Below, in pieces: positions 7,728 to 59,730 of a stretch of DNA of 63,884 nucleotides. The DNA lies in contig JBBTCJ010000068.1 of the NCBI GenBank assembly GCA_038043285.1, positions 1 through 63,884 of the forward strand. Reading direction: 5' to 3'. Numbering within the stretch: position 1 is the first letter of the stretch; each line of letters opens with the position of its first letter. A model generated the notes under the pieces. The model was given only the letters and a program-made list of their open reading frames with translations, made no database searches and was not told the DNA's origin. The DNA is from Planctomycetota bacterium. GTDB taxonomy: Bacteria > Planctomycetota > Phycisphaerae > UBA1845. The translations under genes were made by a program, and so were the position numbers.

Positions 7728-7747
7728 GGACTGGAATCAGCAATTGC

Positions 7748-8763: not shown

Positions 8764-8823
8764 GCGTTACAGGCGGCTTGTCCGCTCGTGCCAACGCCGG
8801 CAGGAAGCTGCCTGTGGCACCCG
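8764..8823. repeat. Repeat family B doublet between convergent genes
   Basis: Inverted copy gcgttacaggcggcttgtccgctcgtgcc followed by a degenerate direct copy ending gcctgtggcacccg. Confidence 0.65.
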
Positions 8824-8865
8824 CCCGTGATGGTGTTCATCGACAAGCGCGAACTGTGGCTGGTG

Positions 8866-31600: not shown

Positions 31601-34600
31601 TCAGGACGAGGTCTTTGGCGCTGCCATCGACATGCCAACATGCGAGGGCCTGGGTGGTCGGTATCTCGGCGGCATTAGGTGCCAAGGCGGATACTGCCAA
31701 AACGATCCACGCTTCTCGTGCGGGTCGGACGCCGATTGTGCCTCGCCCGGTCCGGGCGGAATGTGCGTAGGCCTGGCGCAATCGGAGGCTCAACCCAACC
31801 CCTGCCCGGCCTGCGAGATCACCGGCGTAGGCAACTGCCAGACGTGGGACGATCACGGAAGTCTCACGCCGTCCGACGTTCGAATGGGCGCAATCGTGGC
31901 CGATGATTTGATAGCCGGTCCTGGAACGGGCCAGATTTCCCAGGTCTGCGTGTGGGGCGCGTATCTGGTCAGCGACGCGGATCGATCGTCGATGATCGAC
32001 TGTTGGCAGGCTGCGCCGTCTGACAACTTCAGCGTGAGGATTCTCGCCGACACAGGGTTCCATTTCCCTGACCGCAACGTCGTCGTGGGACAGTCCGCCG
32101 TGATGGTGCAGCGGGCCATCGAAGAAACGGCGTCCTCTCGCACGGCCGACCCTCCCTACGAGACCTTCGGGTACCAGCTCACGCTGATAACGCCGATCAC
32201 TGGGTTGGTTCCCGGCACGGTTTACTGGCTTGAAGTGACCAACGACCTGCCGGCATCCATCGACTGCAACTGGAATTGGAGCTCCCTTCGTCCGGGTTCT
32301 AGCGCCGGGAACCAATACTCTGTCTTAGGCACCGCCGATTTCGGATACCCGCCCTGCGGCGGCGCGTCACCGCAGGACTTCGCCTGGTGCGTGGGGGGGG
32401 CGATTGAGGTTCCAGCGCCGCCGGTCCGATCCGTCTGCGACTGCATGGGCAACTGTCAGTACCAAACTGCCGCGGAAGCGATCGTCAATCGTCATGAATG
32501 GTGTGCGAACGCCGTCGACGATGGTGGCGGCCCGCTCATTTGTGGATTGAACTACTTCTGTCCGTCCGACCCGTCGCCGTCCAACGACGAATGTTCGGCG
32601 GCGGCGCCAATCCCCGTCGGCCTGACGACGTTCAACAACGCATGTGCGGCCACCGACGGCTTGCCGACGATCAAGACCGACGATCGAGGGAATCGGACGC
32701 CGATCGTGGACGACGTTTGGTACAAGTTCGCCCCCCGCCAGAACTGCTTTCTCAACATCTCCATGTGCGGGATGGGAAGCCCGAACGCCAGTGGATTCGA
32801 TCCGGTCATGGCCGTGTACTCAGACGGAACGAGCCGATGTCCATGCCCTTTGGATGACGCGAACGCAGCCAGTACCTGGGTCGGGGGCAACGACAACGGG
32901 TGCATGGGCACGATGCTGGGCGGACCGTCGAGCGTGTCCGGCATACCCGTAAGTGCGGGGGAGTGCGTCACGATTCGCGTCGGGGGATCGCCGGGTCTGG
33001 GGTACGAGCGCGGCGCGGGCCTCCTCAACGTCACCTGCGGTGGTCCGGTTTGTGGCGACAACCTTGCGCAGCCGGGAATCGGCGAGGAGTGCGACGGCGT
33101 CGATGACGCGGCCTGTCCAGGCGGATGCAATCCGCCGGGCGATCCGAATGCGTGCAAGTGCTCGACTCCAGTTTGCCCGAACGGAAACCGCGAAGGTGCA
33201 GAGGAGTGCGATGGCGTCGACGCGGCTGCCTGTCCGGGTCTGTGCCAGTTTGACTGCACCTGCAGCGCAATCTGCGGCAACGGCCAGAAGGAACCGGACG
33301 AAGAGTGCGATAGTTCGGACGCAACGGCTTGCCCGGGTCGATGCCAGGGCGATTGCATCTGCCCACCGAGGATTTGCGGAAACGACTTCGTCGAGTTCCC
33401 CGAGGAGTGCGACGGAACGGATAACGAGAGCTGCGGCGGATATTTCTGTCGCCCGCCCGGCAACGCCGCAGGCGAGTGCACCTGTACTTGCGGCGCGCTC
33501 CCCATCGACGCGCTTCCGCTTTTGCCCGAACCGAATCCGACGGAGAAAAACCGATACATCTCGTTCGTAGTTGACCCCTTCGGCGCGGGTCAGCAGACGG
33601 CCCTGCGGGTGCGCCTGACGTCCTTGCACCACCCCATCGATCCGCCGCCCGGAACGCCGAACTTCACGGCGTTTGAGGGGCAATATCGCTACGTGAACGT
33701 CGTGGGAACAGGCACTTGCCCCGACTCACCGGTATTCGCCACGACTTTCAAGTGCGGCACGTTGTCCTGCACCCCCCAGTATCGTGACTGGGCCGCGGAA
33801 TTGGCCGGCGCGGTGTTGCACGTGACCGGGGCGGATATCGTCCCCAGCTCCATCTATGACGTAGCGATCCTTCCGGTGAGCTGCGCCGGGGTTGAGCTGG
33901 CCTGTGCAGGCGCGTCGACCGAATTGCCCGTTCGAACGTCGTTGTGGGGCGATATCACCGCCTACTTCGACGGTAGCCGCTGGCTCGCGCCGGACGGGTT
34001 CTATCCGAACTTCGATGACATCATGGCTGTCGTCCAGAAGTTCAAGGACACTGCAAGTGCGCCGATCAAGCCCCGCGTTCAAATGTACCCCAATGTGCCG
34101 AACCCGATGAATGATGTAAGTGCGATCGACATCGCGATGATCGTCGATGCGTTCAAAGGGCGTCCCTATGCGCTCCCCGGTCCGCAGACATGTGCCCTGG
34201 CCACGATCGGCAACGCACCCTCGCCAGGCGAAGCGATCGCGGTTGAATTGCTGGCACGGATAGGCCGAGTTCCTTCTTTGTCCGATGCGCCAGCGACAAT
34301 CGTCTCCGCAGCGGTTGCCGGCGTACCGAACATCAGCTTCGTTCCGGTGAAGGCCACCGGTCTTTATGCCGTCAATGGGAGCGAAATCCTCCTGGAACAG
34401 GGCGGCGTCAACGTCTTCCTGGAGATTCGACTCTCGGGTTGGGATCCCAACGGCGACGCCGTACCGACGCTGTCGTACTTCCAGGCCACGGTGGATCCCA
34501 TGAGCTACTTGGGGTTCAACGCGCAAACGACAGAACCGTTTGTCGATCTGTCGGCGGCCAGCGTGCCCTGCGCAACCACCGCAGAATGTACGGCGGCCTA

Positions 34601-36007: not shown

Positions 36008-39000
36008 ATGGAAGGAACTCGCCGCGGCGATTTTCGCAGGACGCCCGGTTCCATTTCTGTCCCATTGGCGCGTCTGTGCTTGGTTGCGTACGGGGTGGTC
36101 GGCGTCGCTTTGTTCTGCGCGCCGGCCTGGGGCCAAGAGATCATTCGGCCCAAATCGTCTTTCGAGGTGACAAGGGGCGTGCAGACGGGCACGGGCGTCG
36201 CGCCCCAATGGACTGCCGGTTGCCCAGTGACGGACGCTCCCACGGATGAACCGACGCCCATTCGCAAGAACCGATACCTATCCCTGCAACCTGGCAACGC
36301 CGGCATCCAGGTTGCTCTTCAGGTCGAGCTGATCGCCAGCGAGTATTTCCCCGCCTGCGTGGGGATTAAGAAGTGGGTTGGTCCGCCCGACGCCGCGACG
36401 GGAATCGTGCGGTTACAGGATGTACCCGAGTATCGCGACTGGAGCCTGGATCCGACCGTCATCCACGTCGGGGACGTGGAGATTGTCCCGGTTGCCTCCT
36501 ACGAGGTCCGCGCTATCGCGTTAGGGTGCGACACCGCCGAACCACTCAACTTTTCCGCCGCATTGGCGGTTTCGACGATCGATCGGCCCGGGTTCGAGTT
36601 TTGGGGTGATTGCGTGGGCTTGTTCAGCGGAACGTGGCCTGGTCCCGACGGCGTCGTGAATTTTGACGACATTGTGGCCATGGTTCAGTTGTTCAACGAG
36701 ACCGCGAACGCTCCCCCCATCGTTCAAATGGACCTCGCCGGCGCGCGCCCCGACGGCGTACTTAATTACGACGACATTTTTTGGGTGGTCCGCGCCTTCG
36801 ATTCCCAGCCCTACCCCTTCCAGTCTCCTTGTGGAGCAGTCGGGCAGACGGCCAGGGTCGCCGAACAACAGGCTCCGGCGCTCATGAGCTGCACCCTCGC
36901 CCACGACACGGTCGTCGTGGGCACGACGGAGGAGTTCACGATCTTCCTGGGCGATGCCGCGAACTTAGGCGCGTACCAGACCCAGGTGCGGATCACACCG
37001 GTCGGTACGGCCATCGACGGCGGGTTGTACATCGGATGCCCGCCACCGCCTCCCCCGCCGCCTCCCGGCGTCGAGGTATACACCACAGACGGTCGCTTTG
37101 TATTCCTTCCGGTCGGGATCCGCGACGTGACCCGTTCCTGCCCGACGCGGCGCCTGGGGGCCATGACGGCCGTCGGCGTAGGCGTGACCGTGCCGGCGAG
37201 TCCGCCGGGATACGTAGCCACCTACGCGCTGACGGTCAACAACACCGCGGTCCCGGGAACCGAGTACCGCGTCGCTATCGTGCCGAGCCGTGAGCCGTAC
37301 AACTCGCCCCTGGCCCCCAGGGAGGAATCCTTCGTGCGCGACTCCTCCGGCCTGCCGTTGCCCATGAGCACTGGATCCGAATGCCTCCTGCGGATTGCCG
37401 TGGACTGCCAGACCGTCGGGGTCGTCGGGCACGGAGTACCCGACATCTGCGACGTGACCCATCCGGGGAATTGTTCTTCGGTTTCCGGTTGTCGCGGCTA
37501 CGTCTGCGGGACGAGCGCCGACTGCGATGCCGATCTGAGACCGGATGAATGCGAGACCGACTTCGACGCCGATACGGTCATCGATGATTGTGACAATTGC
37601 CCGATGGTGTCCAACCAGAGCCAGTTCGACACCGATAGCGACGGCGTAGGAAACAATTGCGATAGCTGTCAGTCGGTTCCCAACCCCATGTTGGTCTCCG
37701 ACGGAACTCTCCCATGTGCGCCCGCAGCGGGCGAAATGTGGCAACTGGATTCGGATTGCGATGATTTCGGGGATCCATGCGACAAGTGTCCTGGTTTCGA
37801 TGATGCGCTGGATGCCGACTTCGACACCATTCCCGACGGGTGTGACGTGTGTGCAGGCGGTGACGACCGCGTAGACTGCGACCGGGATTTCATCCCCAAC
37901 CGGTGCGAAATCCGCACCAGTGACCAGGGGTTATGCACCGGTCCGGATTGTTCGACCGATTGCCTCACCTTCCAGGGACCGGTCACCATCGGCCCCGACG
38001 GCATGCCCGATGAATGCCAGATAGCGTGCGGGGAGACCTGCCATTTTCTGCCGGACACCGCGGGCATTGATAGTCCGACAGTGGAAGGCGCATTCGAGAT
38101 CCTCCTGCTGGACGGAACGTCGATGAGTGTTTCGGTTGGTGGCGGGGGTTCCACCTTGATTTCGAGAGGAATACCGCACAGTCATGGAGATGCGTTCGAC
38201 CTCAACGCGTCTGATGAGCCTTGCGCGCCGCCCGTGGACTTCCTGGCCAACCCGTCCGTCGGGCGCGAGACGCACGTGGCCATCGGAAATATGGAACTCT
38301 CGAACGGCGCCGTGACCGTCCGTGCGGGCCAGGCATACTTCGCCACAGTCAGCGGAAGCTCCCGGCAGACCTGGTACCAGGACACGCTCGGCGAGGTACA
38401 GGGGACCTGCTTCGACTTCCCGGCGGAATCCTTCTTTGACCTGTTCATGGAAATCGACACCGGCACGATGAAACTCTACAACAAGTCGCCGGTTGTGGTT
38501 CGGGCGGCGATCGCGGATCTTGGGTGGACGTTCCCAACAGCCGCGTCCATATTTGTGAATGCACCTGCGACGCCGGCTGTCCCACTCGTTGACGAATCCG
38601 GGGTGCAACGGGGTTACTTGCAGCGAGCGCAACTCGGGCGTGCGGCAAGGTTTCTCCCTGCTCAAGCCCTCGGATGCCGAACGTCGCCGGGACTGGGCGC
38701 ACCGCTGTCGTTCGTCATCGACGTGGATACGACGGGGCTACCTGTAGGAAGCTCACCCGACCCGAATGACGTTCGCAGCGACGCACCGCTCCTGCGAAAG
38801 AAGGTGACGGTCTACCAGGCACCGGGCGACCCATCCACGGCCGGTCCAAACCTGACCAACATGCGAGACAATACCTTGACCGGCAACGCCCCGGCCGAGT
38901 TTACCAGCGGCAATGCGATTCGAAGTCTGTCTTTCGGGCGTGACGGCAGCGGCGTTACGTCAACCGATCGAACGTCGCCGGCGATCGTGTTTTCCGTCGC

Positions 39001-40630
39001 CCCGAGCGCGCGTGGCACAGCCTGTTCCGACGTTTCCTCGGAAGCGCCCGACCCGCTGGCAAGCCCCGCGGATGGCGATCGAGTCGCGGCCGACTTGTTC
39101 GTCGCACAGGCAGGCCCGTTTGGGACTTACAATGGACCCGTCCTCCCCTGGTGTGACTCGAACCACGGCAACTGCCTGATCGCCGATCAGACTGTCCTGG
39201 GGCTGGGGCCTCTGGTTTCCGGCGGAGCCGGCGCGTCGGACAACCTGGTCGCGCTCGAGTTGAGCGAGTTCAACCCGACCAGCGGGCTGGCGTACCTCAC
39301 CTTCGATCAACCGTCGTTCGGTGGCGACAGCGCGACCATCTTCGTTTTCGATCCCCTCAACGGTCCGTTTCGACCAAGCTCATTGCGGACCTTCGCCGCC
39401 GCGGCCAATCTCGGCCTTGCGTCAGCGGACGAAATCGACGCGCTTGCGGTCTCGGACGTTTCACCACTCGGTCAATGGAGCGCCGGCGATGAAGTTCTCT
39501 TCTCCCTGACCCCCGGCTCCCCGGTCGCCGTAGCAAACGGGTGGTCCGGCGCGCATGTGTTCAAAGTCATGTTTGGTCAAGCGGCGGGGTTGGGACCGGG
39601 GAACATCTATATGGATCCCTCAGACCTCGGCATGCTTCCCGCGGATGACGTGGACGCTATCGACGTCGCCGTGATGGTGTTGGCGGATTGCAACAACAAC
39701 GGCCTCGAAGACCGTTGCGAGATCGCCCTGGGCCTCAGCGAAGATGGAGAGTCCGACGGTATCCCCGACGAGTGCGAGGACAAAAACCGATATGTGACCG
39801 TCCCGCCGAACGTCCTTCCCGCTGGTGCACGAGCGATCCGCGTCGAACTGATAACCCTCATGCAGCCGAATCCGCCGAACATTCCCCAGAATCCTCCGCC
39901 GGACTTCTCGGCCTTCCACGGCAAGACGCGATACGTCAACCTGGTGAGGATGTGTCGGGGCGGCGCGGAACCGGGCACGGTAATCTGTCGCGGTCAAGCA
40001 GAGTGCGACGCCCGTGGACTGGGTGGAAGCTGCGAGCAAATGCACACCTGCCAGGGGGGAAGCGAACCGGGCGGCATTCCTTGCGGCGGTTCCGGGGATT
40101 GCGATGGCCGCGGTCGAGGCGGAGTCTGTGCCCCGAGCATCATCTGCCGCGATTCGGAATCACTCGAGACGACGTTCCGCTGCGCCGTCGTGGATTGCGA
40201 CCCAGAATATTACGACTGGGGGACGGAACTGGGTGGGGCGGCGCTTCACGTGACCGGATCCGTCGTGGTACCCAGCTCTCTGTATCATGTACGAACCCTT
40301 GCCGCCAGCTGCCAGGGCAACGAAGACGTGTGCCTGGACGTGTCGCAAACCATCGTGGTGAAAACGTCCCGTTGGGGAGACACCGGCGCCCCATTCCAAC
40401 GTGCCGCCCCGATGGCCCTGGCCCAGCCCAACGTGCTCGACATCGCAGGCGAGGTCGACAAAGTGAAGGATCTGCTCACGGGCGTGTTGATCAAGCAGCG
40501 GGCCCAACTGCAACCCAACCGGCCCAACCCGATGGCCAACGTGAATGTGCTCGACATCGCCAACGTCGTCGACGCCGTCAAGGGGATTGAGTACCGGTTT
40601 CCCGGGCCGGAGCCTTGTGCTTCGGATTGA
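36008..40630 (+). CDS. Giant secreted modular protein (about 1540 aa): beta+dockerin-like module, cohesin-like domain, TSP3-like Ca repeats, second module
   Basis: Signal peptide ending APAWGQ. KNRY modules at both ends. DNCP..SNQSQFDTDSDGVGNNCD repeats. DGIPDECE. Start uncertain. Confidence 0.85.
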   Translation: MEGTRRGDFRRTPGSISVPLARLCLVAYGVVGVALFCAPAWGQEIIRPKSSFEVTRGVQTGTGVAPQWTAGCPVTDAPTDEPTPIRKNRYLSLQPGNAGIQVALQVELIASEYFPACVGIKKWVGPPDAATGIVRLQDVPEYRDWSLDPTVIHVGDVEIVPVASYEVRAIALGCDTAEPLNFSAALAVSTIDRPGFEFWGDCVGLFSGTWPGPDGVVNFDDIVAMVQLFNETANAPPIVQMDLAGARPDGVLNYDDIFWVVRAFDSQPYPFQSPCGAVGQTARVAEQQAPALMSCTLAHDTVVVGTTEEFTIFLGDAANLGAYQTQVRITPVGTAIDGGLYIGCPPPPPPPPPGVEVYTTDGRFVFLPVGIRDVTRSCPTRRLGAMTAVGVGVTVPASPPGYVATYALTVNNTAVPGTEYRVAIVPSREPYNSPLAPREESFVRDSSGLPLPMSTGSECLLRIAVDCQTVGVVGHGVPDICDVTHPGNCSSVSGCRGYVCGTSADCDADLRPDECETDFDADTVIDDCDNCPMVSNQSQFDTDSDGVGNNCDSCQSVPNPMLVSDGTLPCAPAAGEMWQLDSDCDDFGDPCDKCPGFDDALDADFDTIPDGCDVCAGGDDRVDCDRDFIPNRCEIRTSDQGLCTGPDCSTDCLTFQGPVTIGPDGMPDECQIACGETCHFLPDTAGIDSPTVEGAFEILLLDGTSMSVSVGGGGSTLISRGIPHSHGDAFDLNASDEPCAPPVDFLANPSVGRETHVAIGNMELSNGAVTVRAGQAYFATVSGSSRQTWYQDTLGEVQGTCFDFPAESFFDLFMEIDTGTMKLYNKSPVVVRAAIADLGWTFPTAASIFVNAPATPAVPLVDESGVQRGYLQRAQLGRAARFLPAQALGCRTSPGLGAPLSFVIDVDTTGLPVGSSPDPNDVRSDAPLLRKKVTVYQAPGDPSTAGPNLTNMRDNTLTGNAPAEFTSGNAIRSLSFGRDGSGVTSTDRTSPAIVFSVAPSARGTACSDVSSEAPDPLASPADGDRVAADLFVAQAGPFGTYNGPVLPWCDSNHGNCLIADQTVLGLGPLVSGGAGASDNLVALELSEFNPTSGLAYLTFDQPSFGGDSATIFVFDPLNGPFRPSSLRTFAAAANLGLASADEIDALAVSDVSPLGQWSAGDEVLFSLTPGSPVAVANGWSGAHVFKVMFGQAAGLGPGNIYMDPSDLGMLPADDVDAIDVAVMVLADCNNNGLEDRCEIALGLSEDGESDGIPDECEDKNRYVTVPPNVLPAGARAIRVELITLMQPNPPNIPQNPPPDFSAFHGKTRYVNLVRMCRGGAEPGTVICRGQAECDARGLGGSCEQMHTCQGGSEPGGIPCGGSGDCDGRGRGGVCAPSIICRDSESLETTFRCAVVDCDPEYYDWGTELGGAALHVTGSVVVPSSLYHVRTLAASCQGNEDVCLDVSQTIVVKTSRWGDTGAPFQRAAPMALAQPNVLDIAGEVDKVKDLLTGVLIKQRAQLQPNRPNPMANVNVLDIANVVDAVKGIEYRFPGPEPCASD

Positions 40631-44822: not shown

Positions 44823-46820
44823 ATGGTGATGAACAGGGGAAAGTTGTTGGAGTCCGGCGTTCGGGTGGCGGCCGTCGTGGCAACGTTAGCGCTGAGTGGT
44901 ACGGTCCTTGCGCAAGAGCACGGTCTCGGCGCGACCAAGGGCTGCAATCCGCGCTGCGTCGGTGAGAACATGAACTGCACCATGACGGCGCGGTTCCTGG
45001 ATGACTTTGATGACGTGATCGTGTTGTCAGCCGCGTGGGACGAAGTGGCCTCGACGGGCGGAACGGTCCGCGTTCCCGCGGTGGGCGACCTGCCGATCAT
45101 CGCGGTGGTCGGCAATGCGGTGTGTACGGACGACGGCGGCGTTTGCAACCCAGCCACGGGTGCGAATTGCGCTCTTCCGTGTCGGATGGCCCAATCGGGC
45201 AGCACGGTCGGCGGACTGCCGGGATTGACGGGCAGCGGCCGCGTCCAGTTCGCTCAGAAAACGTACGTGATTCAGCCGGACGACCCGGCCAACCTCGCGG
45301 ACACCGTACAGTTCGCGTGGTCGGACGAGTGCAATTCGGGGCGCTTCGACTGCCCGCAGACGACGCTGGTGACGCCGGCCGGGTCCGCAACGATCGTGAA
45401 AACCTGCGGGGACGGCAACGCATGCACGGAAGACGTGTGCGAGTTGGGCGTGTGCAGCTACATCGCCGAGTGCGGCAGCGCCGCGGACTGCGCGGACGGC
45501 GACGAGTGCACGCAGGACGTGTGTACGCCCGACGGATGTTGCGAGCACCCGCCGGTCGTCTGCGATGACGACAACGGTTGCACGGAGGATTCGTGCGACT
45601 CGGCTGCCGGATGCGTCTATACGCCGGAGTGCCTGGGCGCGGATGATTGCGACGACCAGGACGCCTGCACGAGCGACACCTGCTCGGTTGCCGGATGCTG
45701 CGAACATGCGCCGGTCGTGTGCGACGACAACAACAGTTGCACCGAGGATACCTGCGACTCGGGCACGGGCTGCGTCAACATTCCGCAATGCGTAAACGCC
45801 GATGACTGTGGCGACAACGATGCGTGCACCAACGACATCTGCACGCCCGACGGTTGCTGTGAGCACACCCCGGTGGTCTGTGACGACAACGACGCCTGCA
45901 CGCGGGACTCGTGCGACGCGGCCACGGGTTGCGTTCGCGACGCGATCACGTGCGAGGACAACAATTCCTGCACGGCGAATTCGTGCGTTCCCGCCACGGG
46001 TTGCGTCTACACGCCGGAATGCACGTCGGACGCGGATTGTGAAGACCAGGACGCCTGCATCAGCAATACCTGCTCGGCCGAGGGCTGCTGCGAAGATGCA
46101 CCGGTTATTTGCGACGACCGCAACTCCTGCACAACGGACTCGTGCGATTCGGCCAGCGGCTGCGTCTACGTACCGGAATGCACGTCGGACGCGGATTGCG
46201 ACGATCAGAACGCGTGCACGACGGACAGCTGCTCGGCTTCGGGTTGCTGCGAGCACGCGCTGACCATCTGCGAGCACCGCGCCTGCTACACCGGAACCTG
46301 TGACCCGGCAGGCGGTTGCGCGTTTGAACCGGTGGTTTGTTCACCGGACAATGACGTCTGCACGACGGAATACTGTGATCCGACGCAAGACGCTTGCGTG
46401 TCCGCTCCGGCGAATCCGATGCCTCCGGAGTGCGTCGAGGGCGAAGGGTGCACGCCGGGCTTCTGGAAGCAGCCGCAGCACTTGCAGTATTGGATCGGGT
46501 ACACCCCGACCGACGTCTACGATAAGGTCTTCGGGGTCAGTTCATTCGGCAACATGACGCTGCTTCAGGTGCTGGGCCAGGGCGGCGGCGGCAAGATCGC
46601 GCTGGGTCGGCACTCGGTCGCGGCGTTGCTCAATGCGACCAGCGGCGAGGTTGATTATGCCTACACCGTCGATCAGATCATCGCGATGGTGCAGGAGGCC
46701 TACGCCACCGGCGATTTCGAGGGCGCCAAGAACTTGCTGGCGACGGAGAACGAGCGGGGTTGCTCGGTCGACAAGTCCCGGTCTGGCGGGAAGACGGGAA
46801 TTTCGCGCGGCGGACGGTAG
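44823..46820 (+). CDS. Secreted Cys-rich repeat protein with C-terminal GCTPGFWK domain
   Basis: AAGGAG RBS, signal peptide (VLA|Q), five ~53-aa units of CDD.N.CT.D.C type. Confidence 0.88.
   Translation: MVMNRGKLLESGVRVAAVVATLALSGTVLAQEHGLGATKGCNPRCVGENMNCTMTARFLDDFDDVIVLSAAWDEVASTGGTVRVPAVGDLPIIAVVGNAVCTDDGGVCNPATGANCALPCRMAQSGSTVGGLPGLTGSGRVQFAQKTYVIQPDDPANLADTVQFAWSDECNSGRFDCPQTTLVTPAGSATIVKTCGDGNACTEDVCELGVCSYIAECGSAADCADGDECTQDVCTPDGCCEHPPVVCDDDNGCTEDSCDSAAGCVYTPECLGADDCDDQDACTSDTCSVAGCCEHAPVVCDDNNSCTEDTCDSGTGCVNIPQCVNADDCGDNDACTNDICTPDGCCEHTPVVCDDNDACTRDSCDAATGCVRDAITCEDNNSCTANSCVPATGCVYTPECTSDADCEDQDACISNTCSAEGCCEDAPVICDDRNSCTTDSCDSASGCVYVPECTSDADCDDQNACTTDSCSASGCCEHALTICEHRACYTGTCDPAGGCAFEPVVCSPDNDVCTTEYCDPTQDACVSAPANPMPPECVEGEGCTPGFWKQPQHLQYWIGYTPTDVYDKVFGVSSFGNMTLLQVLGQGGGGKIALGRHSVAALLNATSGEVDYAYTVDQIIAMVQEAYATGDFEGAKNLLATENERGCSVDKSRSGGKTGISRGGR
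45468..46330 (+). repeat. Intragenic ~159-bp tandem repeat (about 5 units)
   Basis: For example ccggaatgcacgtcggacgcggattg recurs 159 bp apart near 46015 and 46174. Confidence 0.8.
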
Positions 46821-47108: not shown

Positions 47109-47876
47109 TTACTCCATCTGATGACAGGTCATGCAGAGCCGGGAGCCTTCGATGGGCACACTGAGGAGCTTGGGCGTGGAGGCATAGAGGTTGTGACACG
47201 AGAGGCAACTGACGGCCCCGCCGGGCAGTCGGACGGCTTCGGGAAGCAGCGTCGCCGGGCGCAGCCGCACGTTGGCCCGCGTTTTTCCGGCTCTGGGATA
47301 AGACACGCCCACGGGGTGGTTGCGACCGCTGTCGCCCACGGATCCACCGCCGCGGTTCCAGGGCGTGTCATAGGCGGCCTCCCCCGCATTCACGCCGTCG
47401 TGACACGACAGGCATTGTCGCGTGCCGTCGTCGACCGATCGGGCTGACTCGCGTTCGTCCGACTCCGGCGTCACGTGGGCTCGTGACATCGCCATCCAGT
47501 GCATTCCGGCGGCCGTCCAATGCGTCGGGTCGCGGTGGCAGTTCAGGCAGAAGTCCGTTGGATCGTCCGCGGGTTCATGCCCCCCACGAAGCATCGGCTT
47601 GCCCTGCCCGCTAAGCGAAGGAAGGGATGCGTGACAGGTGGTGCAGGTGATCGTTCCGTCCGGGGCCAAGGGCCAGCCGGTTGGAACCTTCACCGACGAC
47701 GAAGGCACAACCCCGACCGGGTGATTCAGCATCCCCGGCCCCTTCCGGAGGCGATCGGCGAGGTTCGCCTCCTGGTCCGGCCAGCCGGCGGCCAGGGTCA
47801 GCGTCGCAAGGCACGGCATGGTCAGGAGAACGTAGAACGGTCCTATCGCGTGAACACGCGGGCGCTTCTTCCCCAT
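47109..47876 (-). CDS. Pentaheme cytochrome c (doubled-CxxCH family)
   Basis: Signal peptide. CTTCH, CLNCH, CLSCH, CLSCH, CMTCH. Two NHPVGV motifs. Confidence 0.9.
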   Translation of the reverse strand: MGKKRPRVHAIGPFYVLLTMPCLATLTLAAGWPDQEANLADRLRKGPGMLNHPVGVVPSSSVKVPTGWPLAPDGTITCTTCHASLPSLSGQGKPMLRGGHEPADDPTDFCLNCHRDPTHWTAAGMHWMAMSRAHVTPESDERESARSVDDGTRQCLSCHDGVNAGEAAYDTPWNRGGGSVGDSGRNHPVGVSYPRAGKTRANVRLRPATLLPEAVRLPGGAVSCLSCHNLYASTPKLLSVPIEGSRLCMTCHQME

Positions 47877-48350
47877 GCAATTCTCTCAGGACGATTTCGA
47901 ACCGGGGCGTAGAGTGCGGACCGGGGACAGAATCATCCCACGGTCGGCGTGGCGGATCGCGCGAACGTCCGGCTGCGCTGCGCGGAGGATTAGACCGGTC
48001 CAACTCGAACCGGGTCGCCAGGGAACGCCCTATTTCGGACGTACGATATCGACGGTAAGAACCTGCCCGCGCGGATCGGCAATCTCCGCCGCCCGAAAGT
48101 GGCGTTCGCCACAGACCCGTAAGAACGGGGATCTTCGGACGACGCGCCAGTCGCAAGAATCTTCCCAGACTTGGGAACTCGGCATGACCTCTGCGGCGCG
48201 AAAGGACTGGTTGCGCCGCACTGGACGGCCTCGACATCGTCTCCACCCAGCGGATCCTCGTGCGGCACGACTCTTGCACACCATCGGTCCGGTAGGGTGA
48301 GGCCGCGCGCGGAGCCGGCGCATCTCCTCTCGTCCTGGAGCGGGAACACC

Positions 48351-51300
48351 ATGTTCACAATCGCCATCGGTCCAATGCTTGGATTGGCTGTCGGTCAGCT
48401 CTCACCGCTGACCCACCAGATGACCTGGACGCAGGGGCTGGACAACCCCGCGCGCCTTGCCGAGGCCGACGGAACGTGGTTGATCGCGGACACCCGCGCC
48501 GACCGCGTGGTCCGGTACGACTCGTCCGGGGCGTACCTCGGCGAATGGGCGGAACCGGCGGGTCCGGTGGGAATTGCGGCGCATCCCGACGGACGGATCT
48601 TCGTGTCGCGGCGTGACGATCGGCGCGTGGCCGTCCATGACGCCCAATACGCTTTTCTTGGGTTCCTCGGAATCGGCGCGGTCAGTTTCGTTGAACCGAC
48701 GGACCTGGCGATTGATCCTCTCACGGGACGAATCTACGTCGTTGATACCGGGGCCGATCGCGTCTATGCCTTCCACTCGAGCGGAACCCTCGCGGTGATG
48801 TTCGGCTCCTGCGGCAGCGGCTTCGGACAGTTCAAATACCAGACGGCCGTCGCCGTTGATCCGTTCACCAGCCGCGTGCTGGTCGCTGACCAGGACAACT
48901 TTCGCGTGCAGGTCTTCGACACCGCGGGCATGTTCCTGTTCTCGTTCGGGTATCGCATCAAGTATCTTCCGAGCGGAACGAGCGCCGGTTGGTTCACGCG
49001 GACCGCGGGGCTGGCGACGGACGGCGCCGGGCGCATCTACGTCACCGATGCGCTGATGGGAACGCTGCGTATCTTTTCCCCAAGCGGACTTGAGCTGGGA
49101 GAGGTCGTCGGTTTTGGCGCCAATCCCGGTGAACTCCAAAACCCCGGCGAGGTCGCGCTCGACGGATCGGGTCGGGTGTACGTTGCGAACGCCAACGTCG
49201 GCACGGTCGAGGTCTACGATGCCCCGTCGCCGTCAATGCTCGCCGCCGTCTCGCCGGAGTGGTTTTCCGGAACCAATGAAACGGTCTCTGATCGCCTGAC
49301 GAGTCCGGTGCGGCGCACGCTTCCGTGGTATGACAAGCTACGTCGAGGCACGCAGCGGTTGACTGAAGAGGGAGTCACTGCGACCTCCAGTTGGGACGCG
49401 CCGCACATGTTGTCCGACCTGAGCTGCGGGCGGTGTCACAACGTGCCCGACCAGCCCTTGGGACACCTCGGCACGCTCGACGGGCAGACCAACCTGTGCC
49501 TCTCGTGCCACAACGGCGCGGGTCAGGCACTGGAAGCCTCGTTGCGAACGGCGGACCGGGTGTTGATCTCGCTAAACACGGACAGCGGCGGGCGATCGCA
49601 CGCCTGGGGTGTGTCGGCGATCAACTCCGCCGTCGGGTCGGTTGGACCGCCGGCCGGCAGCGAGATGGCGCGTTATCTTTCCTCCGGGAAGATCAAGTGC
49701 GCTACTTGTCACGACCAGCATTCGCAGATCGCGGGCAGGCCCTACCTGCGAACGAAGAATGACTCCGGCGGGTTGTGCAAACAGTGCCACGCCGAGCACG
49801 TCGGTCACACGCCGCGAGGATCGTGGCAGCCGACGTGCAACGAGTGCCACGACGCGCACAACCCGAACAGCGACAATCTTGGGCTGATCCGTACCGACGT
49901 GCGTAACCGCACGCTCGGCCTCGACAAGGCGGTGACGCTCGTCGCACGAACGGGTCCGGGCAGCTTCGACGACGGCGACCCTGCGGCCAACGACGGGCTT
50001 TGTCAGGTCTGCCACCTGACGACAGCCTATCATCGTCACGACGGATCGGGCGCCCCGCACAACAACGGGCAGGACTGTATCTCGTGCCATCCGCACGACA
50101 ACGGGTTTCTGCCCGTGAGCGGAGGCGACTGCACGTCGTGCCATGCCGTGGCACAGGACAACGGCGACGGCGTCCCGGTCGGCGGCCGCCGCGCGGTCGT
50201 CGGCGAATTCCCCGCGACCGACGCCCACGCCCATTACGGCGCGACGCTGGGAGGCGACGCCTGCGTCGTCTGTCACGACATGACCACGCATCAGGACGGC
50301 TACGTCGACCTGCTCGACGCCGACGACGGGAGTTTGTACAGGTTCCAGAAGCCCGGCGACCTGGCCGGCGACCCCGACGTTTCCAACTTCTGCATGAGCT
50401 GCCACGACCCGGACGGAGCAAGCAGATTTACGACGCCGCTGGATCCGTTCAACAACGGCAATTCCCCGCCCGCGGTGGCCGCGAAGTTCCTGGGCACGCT
50501 GCAATGGGACGAGCAGTACGGCGACTTCTGCTTCGGAACGGAGGGAACCCTGCGCGGCGTCAACAGCCACCACGACGTCCGCGACGCCGATCAGGCGTTT
50601 AGCGGGGCGAAGATCGAATGCCTTGACTGCCATGGCGCACACTCCGCCGGAGCATCGCAGCCGCTCGTGGATCCGTTCCACGCCACGCAACCTTGGACCG
50701 GGAGCAACAATGCCTTCTGCTTATCGTGCCACAACGGCGGCACCGGTCCGCTGGATCCGGGATTCCCCGCCGGCGTGTTCGGTCCGGCGATCGACACCAC
50801 TGACCCACGTTGGGCGTCCTTGGGCATCAACTGGACGACAACGCTCGGCGGCGCCTGCGTCGGCGGCGGGTGCTCCTCACTGCGCGGCATCGACTCCTGC
50901 GACTATGTGGATGGACCCTGGTACGTCGATTACTCGTGGACCCACTCCGCCCACGGACCGGATTCGAAGCGCGGGTGGAACGGCTATTCCGGCGCGCCGG
51001 GCGCGGACATGGATTGCACGACCTGTCACGACCCGCACGGTTCGACGACAGCCACGAACCCAGCAGGCAACCCCTACATGATTCGCGACGCCATCGACGG
51101 GACGGCCTTCGTCGACGACGGCACGCGCAGCGGCGGATTCAACGGTCCGCCGTGGAACGCCTACGGCACGGGCCGCCCCGTCGTCGTCCCGGTCAGTGGG
51201 ACGACCGTCGGCTGGGGAGCGGGCAGCGGTCTCTGCGGAGCTTGTCACGCCAACTGGATACAGGCCTATGATTGGCATGAGTTCTGCAACGGCTGCCAGA

Positions 51301-51488
51301 CCTGTCATGGTCATGGGATGGCCTGGGGCGAGGCGGACTGGGTCGGGTTCGATAACGATACGCCGTGTCCGATACCCAACGCCGCGTCCTTGGGTGAGTT
51401 TTCGGTCCCCGCGGCGATGCCTGGTGAACCGGAATCGCCGACACGAATGGAACCCCAATTGCACCGTATAGATAGGCGGCGAGAGTAG
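48351..51488 (+). CDS. NHL beta-propeller fused to a 15-heme cytochrome c
   Basis: N-terminal NHL repeats (P.GIA, P.DLAID, VADQDNFRVQVFD). I counted 15 CxxCH motifs in the C-terminal ~680 aa. GGAG RBS. Confidence 0.9.
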   Translation: MFTIAIGPMLGLAVGQLSPLTHQMTWTQGLDNPARLAEADGTWLIADTRADRVVRYDSSGAYLGEWAEPAGPVGIAAHPDGRIFVSRRDDRRVAVHDAQYAFLGFLGIGAVSFVEPTDLAIDPLTGRIYVVDTGADRVYAFHSSGTLAVMFGSCGSGFGQFKYQTAVAVDPFTSRVLVADQDNFRVQVFDTAGMFLFSFGYRIKYLPSGTSAGWFTRTAGLATDGAGRIYVTDALMGTLRIFSPSGLELGEVVGFGANPGELQNPGEVALDGSGRVYVANANVGTVEVYDAPSPSMLAAVSPEWFSGTNETVSDRLTSPVRRTLPWYDKLRRGTQRLTEEGVTATSSWDAPHMLSDLSCGRCHNVPDQPLGHLGTLDGQTNLCLSCHNGAGQALEASLRTADRVLISLNTDSGGRSHAWGVSAINSAVGSVGPPAGSEMARYLSSGKIKCATCHDQHSQIAGRPYLRTKNDSGGLCKQCHAEHVGHTPRGSWQPTCNECHDAHNPNSDNLGLIRTDVRNRTLGLDKAVTLVARTGPGSFDDGDPAANDGLCQVCHLTTAYHRHDGSGAPHNNGQDCISCHPHDNGFLPVSGGDCTSCHAVAQDNGDGVPVGGRRAVVGEFPATDAHAHYGATLGGDACVVCHDMTTHQDGYVDLLDADDGSLYRFQKPGDLAGDPDVSNFCMSCHDPDGASRFTTPLDPFNNGNSPPAVAAKFLGTLQWDEQYGDFCFGTEGTLRGVNSHHDVRDADQAFSGAKIECLDCHGAHSAGASQPLVDPFHATQPWTGSNNAFCLSCHNGGTGPLDPGFPAGVFGPAIDTTDPRWASLGINWTTTLGGACVGGGCSSLRGIDSCDYVDGPWYVDYSWTHSAHGPDSKRGWNGYSGAPGADMDCTTCHDPHGSTTATNPAGNPYMIRDAIDGTAFVDDGTRSGGFNGPPWNAYGTGRPVVVPVSGTTVGWGAGSGLCGACHANWIQAYDWHEFCNGCQTCHGHGMAWGEADWVGFDNDTPCPIPNAASLGEFSVPAAMPGEPESPTRMEPQLHRIDRRRE

Positions 51489-51543
51489 ACCTAGGCCCCG
51501 GCGCCACGACGGAAGCCGAGGCCGAGGTCGCCGGCGAACTGAC

Positions 51544-52371
51544 ATGGCCCGGAAGAACACCAACCGATTCCGCGGAGGCATGGCTGCGGCGATGGTCTGG
51601 CTGTGGACCGCCGGGTACGTCCCGGCGGCCGACGTCACGGTTAACCCCGGCGCGGATGGAACTCTTGTTGACGGCGGTGTATTCGGGCTGTTTGACGGAA
51701 CCGCCGATGCCGCTGACTGGTACTTCAACGAATCGACCTACGAGGGCGCGATCTCGCTCTCGCGATCGGGGAATCTTCTGGAGCATCGCGTGGTCTTCGA
51801 GTTTAACCTGGGCACGGTCACCTATCCGACGCCGGTTCGTGCGATGTTCAAGTTCAAGTTACGCGGCGCGGCGCGGTTCCCGGCTGACCCGGCCGACGTC
51901 GCGGTCTTTTCGTATCCCGCGGACGTGCAGGAAACGCTGACGGATTTTTCCGCGGGTCCGGCGCAGCGCCTGGCGGTGCTGTCGGTTTCGCCGTTTCAGG
52001 CGCTGACGTCCTACACGATCGACGTGAGCGGTCCGGTGAACGCAGCCATTACGGGCGGGACCAAGAAGGTGGGGTTTCGCCTTCAGATCGACCCGCTGAC
52101 GTCGAGCCTCTCAAGCCAGGCGTTCATGGACATCCTGGAGAGCGATCCAACGACCAAACCGAGCCTGCGGATCTCGGACCAGGTGGCCGGAGATTTCGAC
52201 GGGGACCGCGACGTGGACCTCCACGATTTGGCCGCCCTTCCGTCGTGCATGAGAGGTCCGGCGATTACGGCAACCAGCGCCTGTCAGCCGCTTGACGCGG
52301 ACCTTGACGCCGACGTGGACCTTCTTGATTACGCCCGCGTGCTCCCAACGTTTACGGCTCCGCCGGTCTAA
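51544..52371 (+). CDS. Secreted protein with beta-sandwich and C-terminal dockerin-like domain
   Basis: Signal peptide. GDFDGDRDVDLHDLAAL..CMRGP...C..LDADLDADVDLLDYA duplicated Ca-loop. Confidence 0.8.
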   Translation: MARKNTNRFRGGMAAAMVWLWTAGYVPAADVTVNPGADGTLVDGGVFGLFDGTADAADWYFNESTYEGAISLSRSGNLLEHRVVFEFNLGTVTYPTPVRAMFKFKLRGAARFPADPADVAVFSYPADVQETLTDFSAGPAQRLAVLSVSPFQALTSYTIDVSGPVNAAITGGTKKVGFRLQIDPLTSSLSSQAFMDILESDPTTKPSLRISDQVAGDFDGDRDVDLHDLAALPSCMRGPAITATSACQPLDADLDADVDLLDYARVLPTFTAPPV

Positions 52372-53396: not shown

Positions 53397-53720
53397 ATGG
53401 TCACGATCGGAATGAACTATGCGGTCATCCAGGGCAAGGAGCAGACCTTCGAGAGCGCCTTCAACAAGGTGCTGAAGGCCATGCAGGGCATCGGTGGCCA
53501 CGGCGAGACCCAGATGTATCGCGACATCAACAACCCGCAACAGTACCTGATCGTCTCGCTTTGGACCGACAAGGCCGCCTTCGACGCCTTCATCGGTTCA
53601 GAGACCTTCAAGAGCGTGGCCAACTGGGGCAAGGAGCAGATTCTCTCCGGGCGTCCGCGGCACGAGGTTTATGGCGGCAACGAACCCGCGGCAGCCCGCT
53701 GCCCGGCGCACGCAGGGTAG
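53397..53720 (+). CDS. Antibiotic-biosynthesis-monooxygenase (ABM/HmoA-like) family protein
   Basis: AGGAG RBS. GKEQTFE..F...YLIVSLWTDKAAFDAFIGSE.F...RPRHEVY. Confidence 0.85.
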   Translation: MVTIGMNYAVIQGKEQTFESAFNKVLKAMQGIGGHGETQMYRDINNPQQYLIVSLWTDKAAFDAFIGSETFKSVANWGKEQILSGRPRHEVYGGNEPAAARCPAHAG

Positions 53721-56433: not shown

Positions 56434-59400
56434 TTACGCGGCGGACAGGCTCCGCCGACCAAAGAAAATCTTGCCGCCGGTCAGAAGCAGCAGACTCAGC
56501 ACCACCAGCCCCCACTCCGACACGGTGGGAATCGGGCAGAATTCGTGTATCACCGGAACGATGCAATCAGCAGCAATGTTTCCGCATTCGTCGCGAGCCT
56601 CGCAACTGATGGTCACTGAGTCGGACTCCACCGGATCATTCAGCGGTTTTCCGTCGCTTCGGGTGCAGGTCACATCGCACATGCCGCAGCTGTCGGTGCA
56701 CGTCGGAGGCGTAAACGGAACGGGTTGCCCCGGACACACCGCGACGCTCGTCGGACAGTTTTGCATCGTTGGCGGATGCGTGTCGATGATCAGAATGTGC
56801 TGAACGCATTGGGTGACGTTTCCAGTGTTTCCCGTCGCGACGATGGACGTGGCCCCTCCGTCCGTCGCGCTGATGGTACGCGTAACGTCAAGCTTTGGCA
56901 GCGGACTGATACCGGCGACCACCTGGGGCGTACAGTCCTTCACGGTCTGTTCGACTTCGATGGTGATCTCGGGATCGGGGTCGCAATTGTCGGTCACGAT
57001 CGGATCGCCGAAATCGCCGATGGCGTCACACTGGAAGGTGAGATCCGGCGGACAGATGATGACCGGCGCCGTGGTGTCCACGATTCGGATCGTGTGCTGG
57101 CAGCTGGCCGACTTGCCGCAAGCGTTGGTGACCGTGCAGGTGCGGGTGACCGTGCTCTCCTGCGTAAGTTTGCCGGGAACCACGACCTCGACGCATTCCA
57201 CGGTCGCACTCGGCGTGCAAGTATCATTGACCGTCGGGTCGCCGAAACTGCCCACCGCGTCGCACTCGTACGTCAGGTCGGGTGGACAGGTGATGCCCGG
57301 CGTGGGGCAGGTATACACGCAGAGGTCGCCGGCCTCGTCGCACGAATCTTGCGTGCAGGCGACGAGGTCGTCACACGGCGGATCCCCCGGTACGCACACG
57401 GCAGCCAGGCACGTTTCGTCGCCGTTGCAGTAGAGACCGTCTCCGCAGGACGTGCCGTCGGGCGCGTCCGGAAGATCGACGCAGGTGCCAGACAGTGGGT
57501 TACATTCCTGCCCGCTCTCACATGGGGGAACGGCCCCGGCGCATGAAACCTCGCTGAGCCTCGCGCATTGCCCCAGGCCGTTGCAGTGATCGTGGGTACA
57601 GAGATTGCCGTCCGCCTCGCACGGCGTGCTCAGCACCGGATCGGAAAGCTGATCGCACGCGCCGGTGGCCGGGTTGCACCGCGTTCCGGCGTCACAGAAT
57701 CCCGTCGGACCCGGACAGACGCGGTCTTCGATAAACACGCAGGCGCCTGTCCCGTCGCACTCTTCCAGGGTGCAGCGGTCGTTGTCGCCTTCGCACGGCG
57801 TTCCCGCGGCCGGGTCGGTCAGATTCATGCACATGCCGGTTCGGGATGCGCAAACCTGCCCGGCGTCGCACGGACCGGATGGATCGAGGCACACGACGTC
57901 ATCCAGGAACACGCAACTTCCGGTCCCGTCACAATGATCATTGGTACAGAGATCACCATCCCGCTCGCAGGGCGTGCTGAGAGGCTTCGGCGATAGGACG
58001 CAATTGCCGGTCGTCGGATTGCAGGCTGCGGTGGTGCAAGGACCGGCCAGCCCGGAACAATCGACCGCACCGACCGGCGCGCACCCGCCGCTGCCGTTGC
58101 ATTCCTCGATAGTGCACAGATTTCCGTCCGCCTCGCACGGTGTTCCGCTCGGCGGGTTGGGAAGCATGACGCACTGCCCGGTCTGCGGATCGCATTGCTC
58201 GCCGGCGCTGCAGGTGTCGCCGCTGCCGCAGACGACGTTGTTGTACGTCACGCAGGCTCCGGCACCGTCGCAGTGGTCGATCGTGCAGGCGTTGTCATCT
58301 CGATTGCACGGCGTGCTCAGCGGAGGATCGGGCAGCGGGTTGCACCCGCCGGTGCTCGGATCACACACGGTTCCGCCGTCACAAACGTGGATCGGCCCGG
58401 GGCACGATACGTTGTTGTAAGTCACGCACAAACCCTGACCGTCACAATGGTCGATCGTGCAGAAGCTTGCGTCCGCCTCGCACGAAGTGCTCAGCGGCGC
58501 GTCCGCCTGGGCAACGCACAACCCGGTGCCCGGGCTGCATACCTCTCCGCCGTCGCACGGCGGGTTGGGGGCCTGACAGCTTACGTCATCAAAGGTCACG
58601 CAGGCGCCGCTGCCGTTGCAATGGTCGATGGTGCAAAGGTTGCCGTCGGCCTCGCAGGTCGTGCTCAGCGGAAGCGGCGGGTTGGAACATGAATCGTTGA
58701 TCTCGTCGCAAACGCAACCCGTGCAGGGGTTGCCGTCGTCGCACTTTCCCCCGGACGAACAGGCGTCCGCCGGGCAAAACGGCAAACGCACGTCGGCGCC
58801 CTTGAGCTGGTTGTCTTGCGATCCCAGCGAAATCCCGTCCACGTTGCTGAGCTTGAAGTGGTACGGTCCACCGCTGATGGCCGAAGCCCCGCGCCCGGCG
58901 CCATACCCGATCCCTATGCCGGTCGCGCCGTCGATCCCGACGGAAATATGGCCGGCGACCTCGACGAGAACCATCGCCGCGTCTGAGGTCCAATGAACCG
59001 TGTAGGCGGCATCCGAATCGGAACCGCCGGTGTACCCGTCGAAGGTCATGGACACGCCGGTCAGCGCGCTCGCCGAGGACGGGGCACAAATGCGGAACGT
59101 TCGATTACCCATGCTCGACTCGTAGGCGGTCACGCTCGCGGCGACGTTGTCGCCCAAGAGTGTTCCCATGTTGTCGGGCAGATTGGCGTTGACGCAGTTG
59201 GTGCTTGCCGAGAGCGCCGTGCAGAGGGCGGTCGTCGCCGGCGGGCCGATCGCGGGACCGCACTCATCGACGAACAGATCGGCGAGCAGACCCGGCGGAG
59301 GAGGTTCCAGCAGGTTGGCGGCGGCGTACGCCTGGCTCCAAGAGGTCAGATAGTCGTAGGCATGAATGGTCGCGCTCTTGTTCGCCTGATGGCTGAGCGA

Positions 59401-59730
59401 CAGCGCGTGGGTGTTGCCGGACGTCGCCGGAATGTCCTCCAGGATCGCCCGTTGCGGAACGGACATCCCCTCCAGATACAGCGAGTTGTTTTGCTGCAGG
59501 ATGGAGTTGATCCACTTGATGCCGCCCAGCGTCGGATCCTCGTTGGCCGGTTGACGAAAATCAGTCCCGATCGAGGTGGTCACCGTGATCTGGGCACGAA
59601 CGAGAATCGGCAGCGCGCAAAACCCGATGCCCACACAAACCATCAGGCCGGAGAACCGGACCGAGGGTCGGCGAAGCCATTGCGAAGCAGACGAAATCCA
59701 ACGCGGAAAAGTCCGATAGGCGGGGCGCAT
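56434..59730 (-). CDS. Cys-rich surface protein with IPTL-CTERM sorting signal
   Basis: Signal peptide. Seven ~58-aa 8-Cys repeats. HYR-like DTTAPVIICPPD domains. C-terminal IPTVSEWGLVVLSLLLL...RR. Confidence 0.9.
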   Translation of the reverse strand: MRPAYRTFPRWISSASQWLRRPSVRFSGLMVCVGIGFCALPILVRAQITVTTSIGTDFRQPANEDPTLGGIKWINSILQQNNSLYLEGMSVPQRAILEDIPATSGNTHALSLSHQANKSATIHAYDYLTSWSQAYAAANLLEPPPPGLLADLFVDECGPAIGPPATTALCTALSASTNCVNANLPDNMGTLLGDNVAASVTAYESSMGNRTFRICAPSSASALTGVSMTFDGYTGGSDSDAAYTVHWTSDAAMVLVEVAGHISVGIDGATGIGIGYGAGRGASAISGGPYHFKLSNVDGISLGSQDNQLKGADVRLPFCPADACSSGGKCDDGNPCTGCVCDEINDSCSNPPLPLSTTCEADGNLCTIDHCNGSGACVTFDDVSCQAPNPPCDGGEVCSPGTGLCVAQADAPLSTSCEADASFCTIDHCDGQGLCVTYNNVSCPGPIHVCDGGTVCDPSTGGCNPLPDPPLSTPCNRDDNACTIDHCDGAGACVTYNNVVCGSGDTCSAGEQCDPQTGQCVMLPNPPSGTPCEADGNLCTIEECNGSGGCAPVGAVDCSGLAGPCTTAACNPTTGNCVLSPKPLSTPCERDGDLCTNDHCDGTGSCVFLDDVVCLDPSGPCDAGQVCASRTGMCMNLTDPAAGTPCEGDNDRCTLEECDGTGACVFIEDRVCPGPTGFCDAGTRCNPATGACDQLSDPVLSTPCEADGNLCTHDHCNGLGQCARLSEVSCAGAVPPCESGQECNPLSGTCVDLPDAPDGTSCGDGLYCNGDETCLAAVCVPGDPPCDDLVACTQDSCDEAGDLCVYTCPTPGITCPPDLTYECDAVGSFGDPTVNDTCTPSATVECVEVVVPGKLTQESTVTRTCTVTNACGKSASCQHTIRIVDTTAPVIICPPDLTFQCDAIGDFGDPIVTDNCDPDPEITIEVEQTVKDCTPQVVAGISPLPKLDVTRTISATDGGATSIVATGNTGNVTQCVQHILIIDTHPPTMQNCPTSVAVCPGQPVPFTPPTCTDSCGMCDVTCTRSDGKPLNDPVESDSVTISCEARDECGNIAADCIVPVIHEFCPIPTVSEWGLVVLSLLLLTGGKIFFGRRSLSAA

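Follow-up and report, generated by a model that had tools for sequence, protein, structure and literature searches.

A divergent multiheme cytochrome locus occupies positions 47109 to 52371 of a 63,884-nucleotide stretch of DNA (the window) from a Planctomycetota bacterium of the class Phycisphaerae (assembly GCA_038043285.1, contig JBBTCJ010000068.1). Three genes make it up. PENTA (47109..47876, minus strand) encodes a pentaheme paralog of the nanowire cytochrome OmcE, 255 residues long; the second gene, on the plus strand, fuses an NHL β-propeller to a multiheme cytochrome; and DOCK (51544..52371, plus strand), which follows the fusion after 55 nt, encodes 275 residues with a signal peptide, a CBM96/DNRLRE-like β-sandwich (about residues 29-213) and a dockerin-like tail with a double Ca loop. 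Exact counts bear out what the first-pass annotation had read from the letters, namely 15 CxxCH motifs behind about six NHL blades in one open reading frame (ORF) and a divergently transcribed five-heme cytochrome: all 15 motifs of the fusion lie C-terminal to the propeller, PENTA has five and DOCK none. Elsewhere in the window, in six frames, just four scattered CxxCH occur. The fusion most likely starts at ATG 48351 and not at TTG 48171 as first called (48171-51488, plus strand), because the N-termini of 20 full-length homologs align there and a sigma54-type site falls downstream of the TTG; the revised gene (48351-51488) encodes 1045 residues.

The architecture of the fusion combines three parts. 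A short hydrophobic leader, ending at a glutamine (Gln16) that is invariant among the 20 full-length homologs aligned, is followed by the propeller (together 48351..49250, with the propeller at about residues 16-300). In the AlphaFold2 (AF2) model the latter comprises 24 strands in six blades, with predicted local confidence (pLDDT) values mostly of 77-92 per block, and Foldseek matches it to the NHL domains of TRIM2 and TRIM3 with a target template-modelling (TM) score of 0.88. It carries a conserved insertion loop (residues 199-217) and the invariant polar residues D180, R185, R202, R217 and D233, and the family alignment contains no invariant His or Cys in it. Next comes an OmcE-like tetraheme module with hemes 1-4 (49386..49799, residues 346-483), and then a lineage-variable extension of 11 more CxxCH hemes with a low-complexity tail ending at H1038 (49800..51488). 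An assembly artefact, against which the annotation had cautioned, can be set aside since the junction is spanned by one contig of another groundwater sample (X3) and most of the homologs listed share the architecture. The X3 contig covers 48763-51446 in one piece with two differences, from the propeller through all the hemes. The homolog search gave 434 matches, and among the best 120 listed there are 81 fusions (the window's own protein included, some being fragments) that join this propeller type to 5-32 CxxCH, exactly 15 in 25 of them.

At the level of sequence profiles, the first four hemes of the fusion and the last four of PENTA are OmcE-like. The profile of the fusion module (A6) has the OmcE structures 9YUQ (E 1.5e-7) and 7TFS (E 7.2e-7) as its best PDB matches, followed by MccA (5.5e-5), in alignments that span hemes 2-4; hhalign extends the correspondence to all four hemes (98.6%, 114 columns) against an alignment of OmcE-like proteins that includes four PENTA rows. 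The two methods agree on homology collinear with OmcE, and the module is carried by all 81 fusions. The profile of 120 PENTA sequences gives the same best PDB matches, 9YUQ at E 1.7e-10 and 7TFS at E 1.6e-6, and residues 110-253 match an OmcE-like hidden Markov model (HMM) with E 3.5e-15. PENTA is built of an N-terminal leader, one extra heme module and hemes 2-5 collinear with the four of OmcE. The link is visible by profiles only: when the single sequences of PENTA and of the heme region were searched against the PDB, OmcE was missed and the best match was a cytochrome c7 (E 0.008).

The distribution of potential heme ligands is uneven between the two cytochromes. All heme motifs are plain CxxCH, without CX3CH or CX4CH variants and without a non-His CxxC heme site. 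PENTA combines its five CxxCH with four invariant distal histidines (H52, H126, H134 and H187), nine His in total, in 120 of 120 homologs, so that one heme would be left without an internal His ligand; this is not the pattern of an OmcE subunit, which has four CxxCH and four conserved distal His. The histidines that follow hemes 1 and 3 in OmcE are absent, and the heme-3 site is occupied by a tyrosine (Tyr231) in 115 of the 120 homologs and by phenylalanine in five, an exchange that points to a role in packing more than in ligation. The fusion family, for its part, keeps 17 invariant non-proximal His per 15 hemes (21 of 21 sequences). Both in OmcE and in OmcS a subunit supplies a histidine ligand to a heme in the following one (PMC9473688; the papers cited here by identifier were accessible in part, and statements about them refer to those parts). 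The deficit of PENTA and the surplus of the fusion are compatible with such ligation in trans, and we infer that PENTA may receive a histidine from a neighbouring protein.

The locus behaves like a component of an OmcE system, yet it is not a core cluster: the 64-kb window contains no stand-alone OmcE tetraheme gene, no large barrel gene and no free propeller lipoprotein gene, and the earlier remark that no porin is visible at the locus holds for this whole length. In relatives the missing genes are found next to it. The cluster order there is 11-heme, NHL, barrel, pentaheme, NHL, OmcE, 13-heme, an uncharacterised gene, sigma54 regulator, kinase and PENTA, followed by divergent DOCK and at least one fusion, and it is complete at five loci (L038, L040, L059, L068 and L080). 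In the genome studied here (G000) the parts are split over contigs C63, C111, C45, C68 and C192. Contig C63 holds genes for a pentaheme cytochrome, a 670-aa barrel-type protein, an NHL protein and an 11-heme cytochrome; the barrel is identified through the match of its Atlas model, with TM 0.87 to Thermodesulfobacteriota clusters and 0.53 to an MtrB/PioB cluster. The tetraheme protein encoded on C111 is clearly homologous to OmcE (7TFS, E 8.6e-23), and free NHL propellers are encoded on C63, C111 and C38. Adjacency of C111 and C63 is deduced from the relatives alone, because the contig ends share no overlapping sequence.

Co-occurrence was followed in 61 related genomes, where a fusion was counted only if the match included the propeller; two genomes with matches to the heme part were left out. 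By this measure the fusion is present in 18 genomes, and the C63-type barrel and the C111-type OmcE (the core) in an identical set of 19; both fusion and core occur in 17 and neither in 41. PENTA was found in 18 genomes, 17 of which overlap the fusion set, and DOCK in 16, all inside that set. The fusion without the core is confined to G033, which is 65% complete. In 9 of 17 relatives a single contig carries both PENTA and the barrel, less than 10 kb apart. Because the three genes co-occur with the OmcE and barrel cluster and PENTA adjoins the barrel in relatives, the porin missing from the window is, on this genomic evidence, probably the barrel-type protein on C63.

A second complete OmcE-type cluster is present in the same genome (G000 C38 2217-9926, L051), with pentaheme, barrel, NHL, 11-heme, tetraheme and NHL genes. 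A barrel match exists in 47 of the 61 genomes, most of which have the C38-type cluster, and its distribution does not track the fusion.

The fusion appears to be a lineage-specific step, given that propeller-less proteins with similar heme regions turn up in other organisms in homolog searches and the heme blocks are therefore widespread. Where taxonomy is given, the fusion homologs belong to Planctomycetes/Phycisphaerae or are unclassified; of 301 genomes sampled across the class, six have a match to the profile of hemes 1-4, five of which (this genome among them) belong to the family of this genome. In the tree the fused propellers form one branch (support 100/99) with two subfamilies, apart from the free cluster propellers, whose automatic 'free_cluster' label also took in one unrelated long-branch propeller (L040:16183). 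A derivation of the fused propeller from the cluster's own propeller lipoproteins was considered and is unsupported by these separate clades. Of the 81 fusions, 56 have a leader that closes with [GASV]Q. In the tail, a histidine of P-[LI]-H type (H1038) is conserved in 33 of 36 tailed homologs and persists across insertions of whole domains, the rest of the tail being unconserved. As a general sorting signal the P-L-H motif was rejected, since it matches 6 of 1482 proteins longer than 300 aa and these are mostly unrelated.

Other members document a modular and expanding family of large multiheme proteins. A 19-heme paralog of the second subfamily is encoded in the same genome (C192 6330-11120, L054); its propeller-heme linker has a single dockerin/EF-hand-like loop, and a sigma54-like site scoring 10/12 accompanies it. 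Genome G022 has four propeller-multiheme paralogs in tandem (C124; L032 3557-19998), with 17, 24, 9 and 10+ hemes, together with one DOCK gene and more copies elsewhere. The closest full-length ortholog among the genomes searched (G007:C227 11250-14393, L031) has one TAG within the propeller and may be a split gene, a pseudogene or an assembly error. Three secreted proteins of 2,200-3,000 aa (P0317, P0326 and P0348) carry 30-38 hemes and 1-3 copies of the OmcE-like module without a propeller.

The third gene, DOCK, is the steady companion of the fusion. A search led by DOCK found 26 loci, of which 23 hold a fusion match and the other three, on short contigs, a multiheme neighbour; five of the 26 had seeded the query, and without them 18 of 21 hold a fusion match. 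The synteny with cytochromes on which the first-pass annotation had made its proposal depend is thus retained in relatives. Planctomycetota, mostly Phycisphaerae, account for 24 of the 26 loci, and a barrel lies within the 10-kb flanks in three. The N-terminal domain, single-copy in the genome, resembles CBM96-type models (Atlas feature score 0.93-0.94, TM 0.7-0.8); NCBIfam DNRLRE is reached with E 0.005 and 16.8 bits, under the cut-off of 34, and no Pfam family matches. Of the earlier description as a secreted protein with a dockerin-like tail, 'dockerin-like' stands and 'dockerin' would go beyond the scores: the tail consists of two DxDxDxDxDxxD loops, and Pfam Dockerin_1 (PF00404) gives 18.3 bits for the whole protein and 22.3 for the tail alone, below its cut-off of 22.9. 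Such tails are found in 39 of the 2826 called proteins of the genome, 29 of them at the C terminus. They are kept in 23 of 26 DOCK homologs, and one homolog (L077) has IPTL-CTERM instead. The tail is likely to be a general-purpose, replaceable Ca-binding tag.

Expression signals are predicted on both sides of the intergenic region. For the fusion/DOCK unit a putative sigma54 promoter of -24/-12 type, CGGCACGACTCTTGCA, lies at 48263..48278 on the plus strand and agrees with 11 of the 12 positions of the sigma54 consensus, a score attained in 18 of the 2642 upstream regions of the genome; scores of at least 10 occur upstream of 11 of 18 orthologous fusions, compared with 60 of 2642 regions (2.3%) in the background. 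Nearer to PENTA, about 170 nt upstream of its ATG, a conserved motif at 48042..48049 reads TACGATAT on the plus strand and ATATCGTA on the minus strand. Among 19 orthologous intergenic regions it is exact in eight and present with one mismatch in 10, and is counted as conserved in 10 of the 19, for a chance expectation of 0.004 per 600 nt; on the minus strand ATATCGTA may serve PENTA as a -10-type element. The sigma54 regulator and kinase of the cluster, located here on C45, are likely to activate the fusion/DOCK unit. On that contig (C45 75-7584, L055) the 13-heme gene, the gene of a 378-aa uncharacterised protein and the regulator/kinase genes stand beside an ORF that we take to be transposase-like, and this element is a possible cause of the break-up of the cluster in this genome.

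With PENTA and the fusion module homologous to OmcE, and given the histidine counts, the co-occurrence and the linkage in relatives, the three genes probably form an accessory arm that is inherited together with an OmcE-type barrel/cytochrome cluster and exported so as to extend or cap its conduit. Quinol-oxidising cytochromes of the inner membrane would pass electrons through the outer-membrane barrel/cytochrome core (C63 and C111 here). The 15-heme fusion would act as an exported bis-His electron wire, joining the conduit through its OmcE-like hemes 1-4 and adding at least 11 variable hemes (up to 32 hemes in the family) toward an external acceptor or a partner cell; the propeller would offer a platform for docking or assembly. 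With one His too few, PENTA would borrow a histidine in trans, either from OmcE or from the fusion with its many His, and thereby act as a cap or adaptor. DOCK, without hemes, would be an accessory at the surface that binds the fusion or shares its location. Transcription of the fusion/DOCK unit would be driven by the sigma54 two-component pair found in the relatives' cluster. The direction of electron flow is ambiguous because similar Uet-like clusters are also found in oxidisers (PMC10734462).

Several observations weigh against this reading. The co-occurrence cut-offs were placed at the visible score gap after viewing and the genomes are kin, so no P value is claimed. The core occurs without the fusion in G005 (87% complete) and G027 (94%), and G017 (96%) has fusions and no DOCK match; the arm is therefore not obligatory. 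In the genome itself the arm is unlinked to the core. Structure prediction contributes little: AF2 is unusable on the heme region of the fusion (pLDDT <50), and although 7TFS is the top match of the PENTA model among 48,161 chains (VIA), the match is weak (Z 4.1, root-mean-square deviation 3.9, 99 residues). The fusion and PENTA have no lipobox (two of the 81 fusions have one) and no recognised export route, and fused propellers, forming a clade of their own, need not act like the free ones. Deletions of single related clusters in Desulfovibrio ferrophilus left Fe(III) oxide reduction unimpaired (PMC9769857), and what cytochrome filaments do is itself disputed (PMC11077965).

The same absence of a lipobox or recognised sorting signal behind a Sec-type leader would suit a fusion that stays inside the cell, as a wire or electron store spanning a wide planctomycete periplasm and feeding the barrel without reaching the surface. 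The freely variable heme number (5-32) fits this picture, and long periplasm-spanning multihemes have been proposed for PCC3 (PMC10734462). It is nevertheless a rather unlikely alternative: the constant neighbour DOCK has a CBM96-like fold and a tail common to large secreted proteins, exchanged for IPTL-CTERM in one ortholog; a homolog (P0263) joins a dockerin-like tail directly to the cytochrome; some homologs have Cys-rich non-heme domains inserted ahead of the tail; and the OmcE fold has been seen in extracellular filaments. A similarly speculative variant, to which we give about the same low weight, makes the arm a set of dedicated end pieces of OmcE filaments, with PENTA as a His-accepting cap, the fusions (as many as four paralogs in tandem, with 5-32 hemes) as swappable conductive tip adhesins that dock by giving up a His, either a spare one or the tethered one at the C terminus, and DOCK attaching the tip to surfaces or polysaccharide. 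If true, cytochrome nanowires would follow a tip and terminator logic like that of chaperone-usher systems.

Two further explanations are improbable. The annotation had left open an electron-transfer or a redox-enzyme module in a planctomycete; of the two, electron transfer is the supported option, and the enzyme idea is weakened by heme motifs that are all plain CxxCH and by the surplus of conserved His. A terminal redox enzyme would have its substrate site in the propeller and its catalytic center at the His-deficient PENTA heme (His/Tyr or open), fed by the 15-heme chain. Enzymes that combine a propeller with heme exist, such as cytochrome cd1 and hydrazine synthase, and the nine His for five hemes, the prevalence of Tyr231 and the invariant polar residues and loop of the propeller would agree with it. 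Yet phenylalanine replaces Tyr in some PENTA homologs, the propeller is without invariant His or Cys, variant heme sites are missing, PENTA is divergently transcribed and no enzyme is among the best PDB matches. We give equally little credence to DOCK as a true dockerin adaptor that would tether the cytochrome to a cohesin scaffold in a cellulosome-like redox array, even though the tail is retained in most homologs, two Pfam cohesin matches exist in the genome (contigs C23 and C78, one above the cut-off) and cohesin/dockerin 'planctosomes' have been hypothesised for Phycisphaerae (PMC6461901). Against it stand the tail's score under the Pfam cut-off, the 39 tailed proteins for two cohesin matches, the replaceable tail of L077 and the absence of a syntenic cohesin gene from the annotated loci. 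The particular tether once suggested, to cohesin-like scaffolds at 28.6-40.6 kb, also finds no backing: whole or as fragments (the latter at E up to 10) these proteins have no Pfam Cohesin match, and hhalign against the genome's Pfam-positive cohesin gives probabilities of 0.2-1.1%, a weak test with shallow profiles.

Comparison with known systems places the accessory arm beside the omcE nanowire cluster of Geobacter sulfurreducens and Desulfuromonas soudanensis (7TFS, 9YUQ), with which it shares the OmcE-type tetraheme fold, the company of NHL propellers and multiheme cytochromes, and joint inheritance with a gene for OmcE and with a large protein of barrel type. Here, by contrast, the propeller is fused to the OmcE-like module and 11 further hemes, has no lipobox and groups in a clade of its own; PENTA carries a fifth heme, and its His set, one short, is rearranged; and DOCK is without counterpart. 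A stand-alone β-propeller, OscD, from an omcS-companion cluster of Geobacter is reportedly tied genetically to the OmcS cytochrome filament (work of Shen and colleagues, 2025); the likeness is in this pairing of propeller and filament, and the propeller here is fused. The minimal OmcE cluster comprises a pair each of multiheme cytochromes and propeller lipoproteins, together with OmcE and a barrel, and the accessible text describing it gives five phyla, without Planctomycetota (PMC13712944). PENTA resembles five-heme OmcE-like proteins predicted there from uncultured bacteria (section 9) in length and in the fifth CxxCH, a comparison made by description only, and a His deficit is not described in that text. 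Undecaheme, tetraheme, NHL and barrel genes, corresponding to the core on C63, C111 and C38, also make up Uet of Ca. Tenderia and Gallionella (PMC10734462) and DFE_0448-0451 and DFE_0461-0465 of D. ferrophilus (PMC9769857), but the NHL units are separate genes there, and the accessible parts describe neither an NHL-multiheme fusion nor a dockerin-tailed partner. As in type I dockerin-cohesin systems and the 'planctosome' (PMC6461901), DOCK is a secreted protein whose tail holds a duplicated Ca loop, and the genome has cohesin-like domains; its tail is generic, replaceable and under the Pfam cut-off, and its cargo is CBM96-like beside cytochromes instead of a hydrolase.

In the literature searched, outside subscription papers, supplements and figures, no description of a propeller-multiheme fusion was found, and no paper joined three or more of Phycisphaerae, multiheme, β-propeller and dockerin. 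Accessible parts of PMC13264449 and PMC12133095 contain nothing on the architecture, and reports of DFE-like or porin-cytochrome markers in Phycisphaerae leave NHL or propeller unmentioned there (PMC10732223; bioRxiv 2022.03.26.485925). For the host's groundwater/sediment family of Phycisphaerae, metal-cycling potential was proposed from generic marker hits only (PMC10732223). What is new here are the OmcE-like modules in the fusion and PENTA, the His deficit and surplus, and the tie of the arm to one specific OmcE and barrel cluster. The 2026 OmcE structure paper leaves open how the filaments start, end and contact minerals, and the operons it describes encode no tip candidate (PMC13712944). 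Two OmcE-derived proteins that are co-inherited with, and often adjoin, an OmcE/barrel cluster are named candidates for these wire ends, and PENTA, short of an axial His, and the fusion, with spare His and a long heme extension, are candidates for reconstitution.

No plasmid match was found for the window, and an RNA run (X17) gave two short contigs of depth 2 at the ends of PENTA, uninformative on expression. One kb away (53397-53720, plus strand) lies a gene for an ABM-family protein with weak, below-cut-off similarity to the heme-degrading HmuQ. Secreted Cys-rich proteins with Dictyostelium-type (CTDC) repeats are encoded at 44823-46820 (plus strand) and 56434-59643 (minus strand), the second with an IPTL-CTERM tail. 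These neighbours and a 254-aa membrane protein show no synteny with the locus in the annotated loci of relatives. Two giant Cys-rich secreted proteins at 28986-35762 and 36080-40630 (plus strand) have a second type of dockerin-like repeat and match no Pfam family. A domain of about 200 aa from the first occurs 12 further times in the proteins searched, three of them in tandem at G000 C145:10734-14039, a scaffold-like layout with a terminal weak dockerin match. The genome as a whole has 28 ORFs with at least two CxxCH and two PF01578 heme-attachment genes. Contig C12 of G000 (4417-10336) encodes two tandem multiheme/cytochrome-b fusions with 19 and 11 CxxCH, PF01292 above cut-off and a sigma54-like site before the second; presumably CbcL-like, they are candidates for the inner-membrane electron source.

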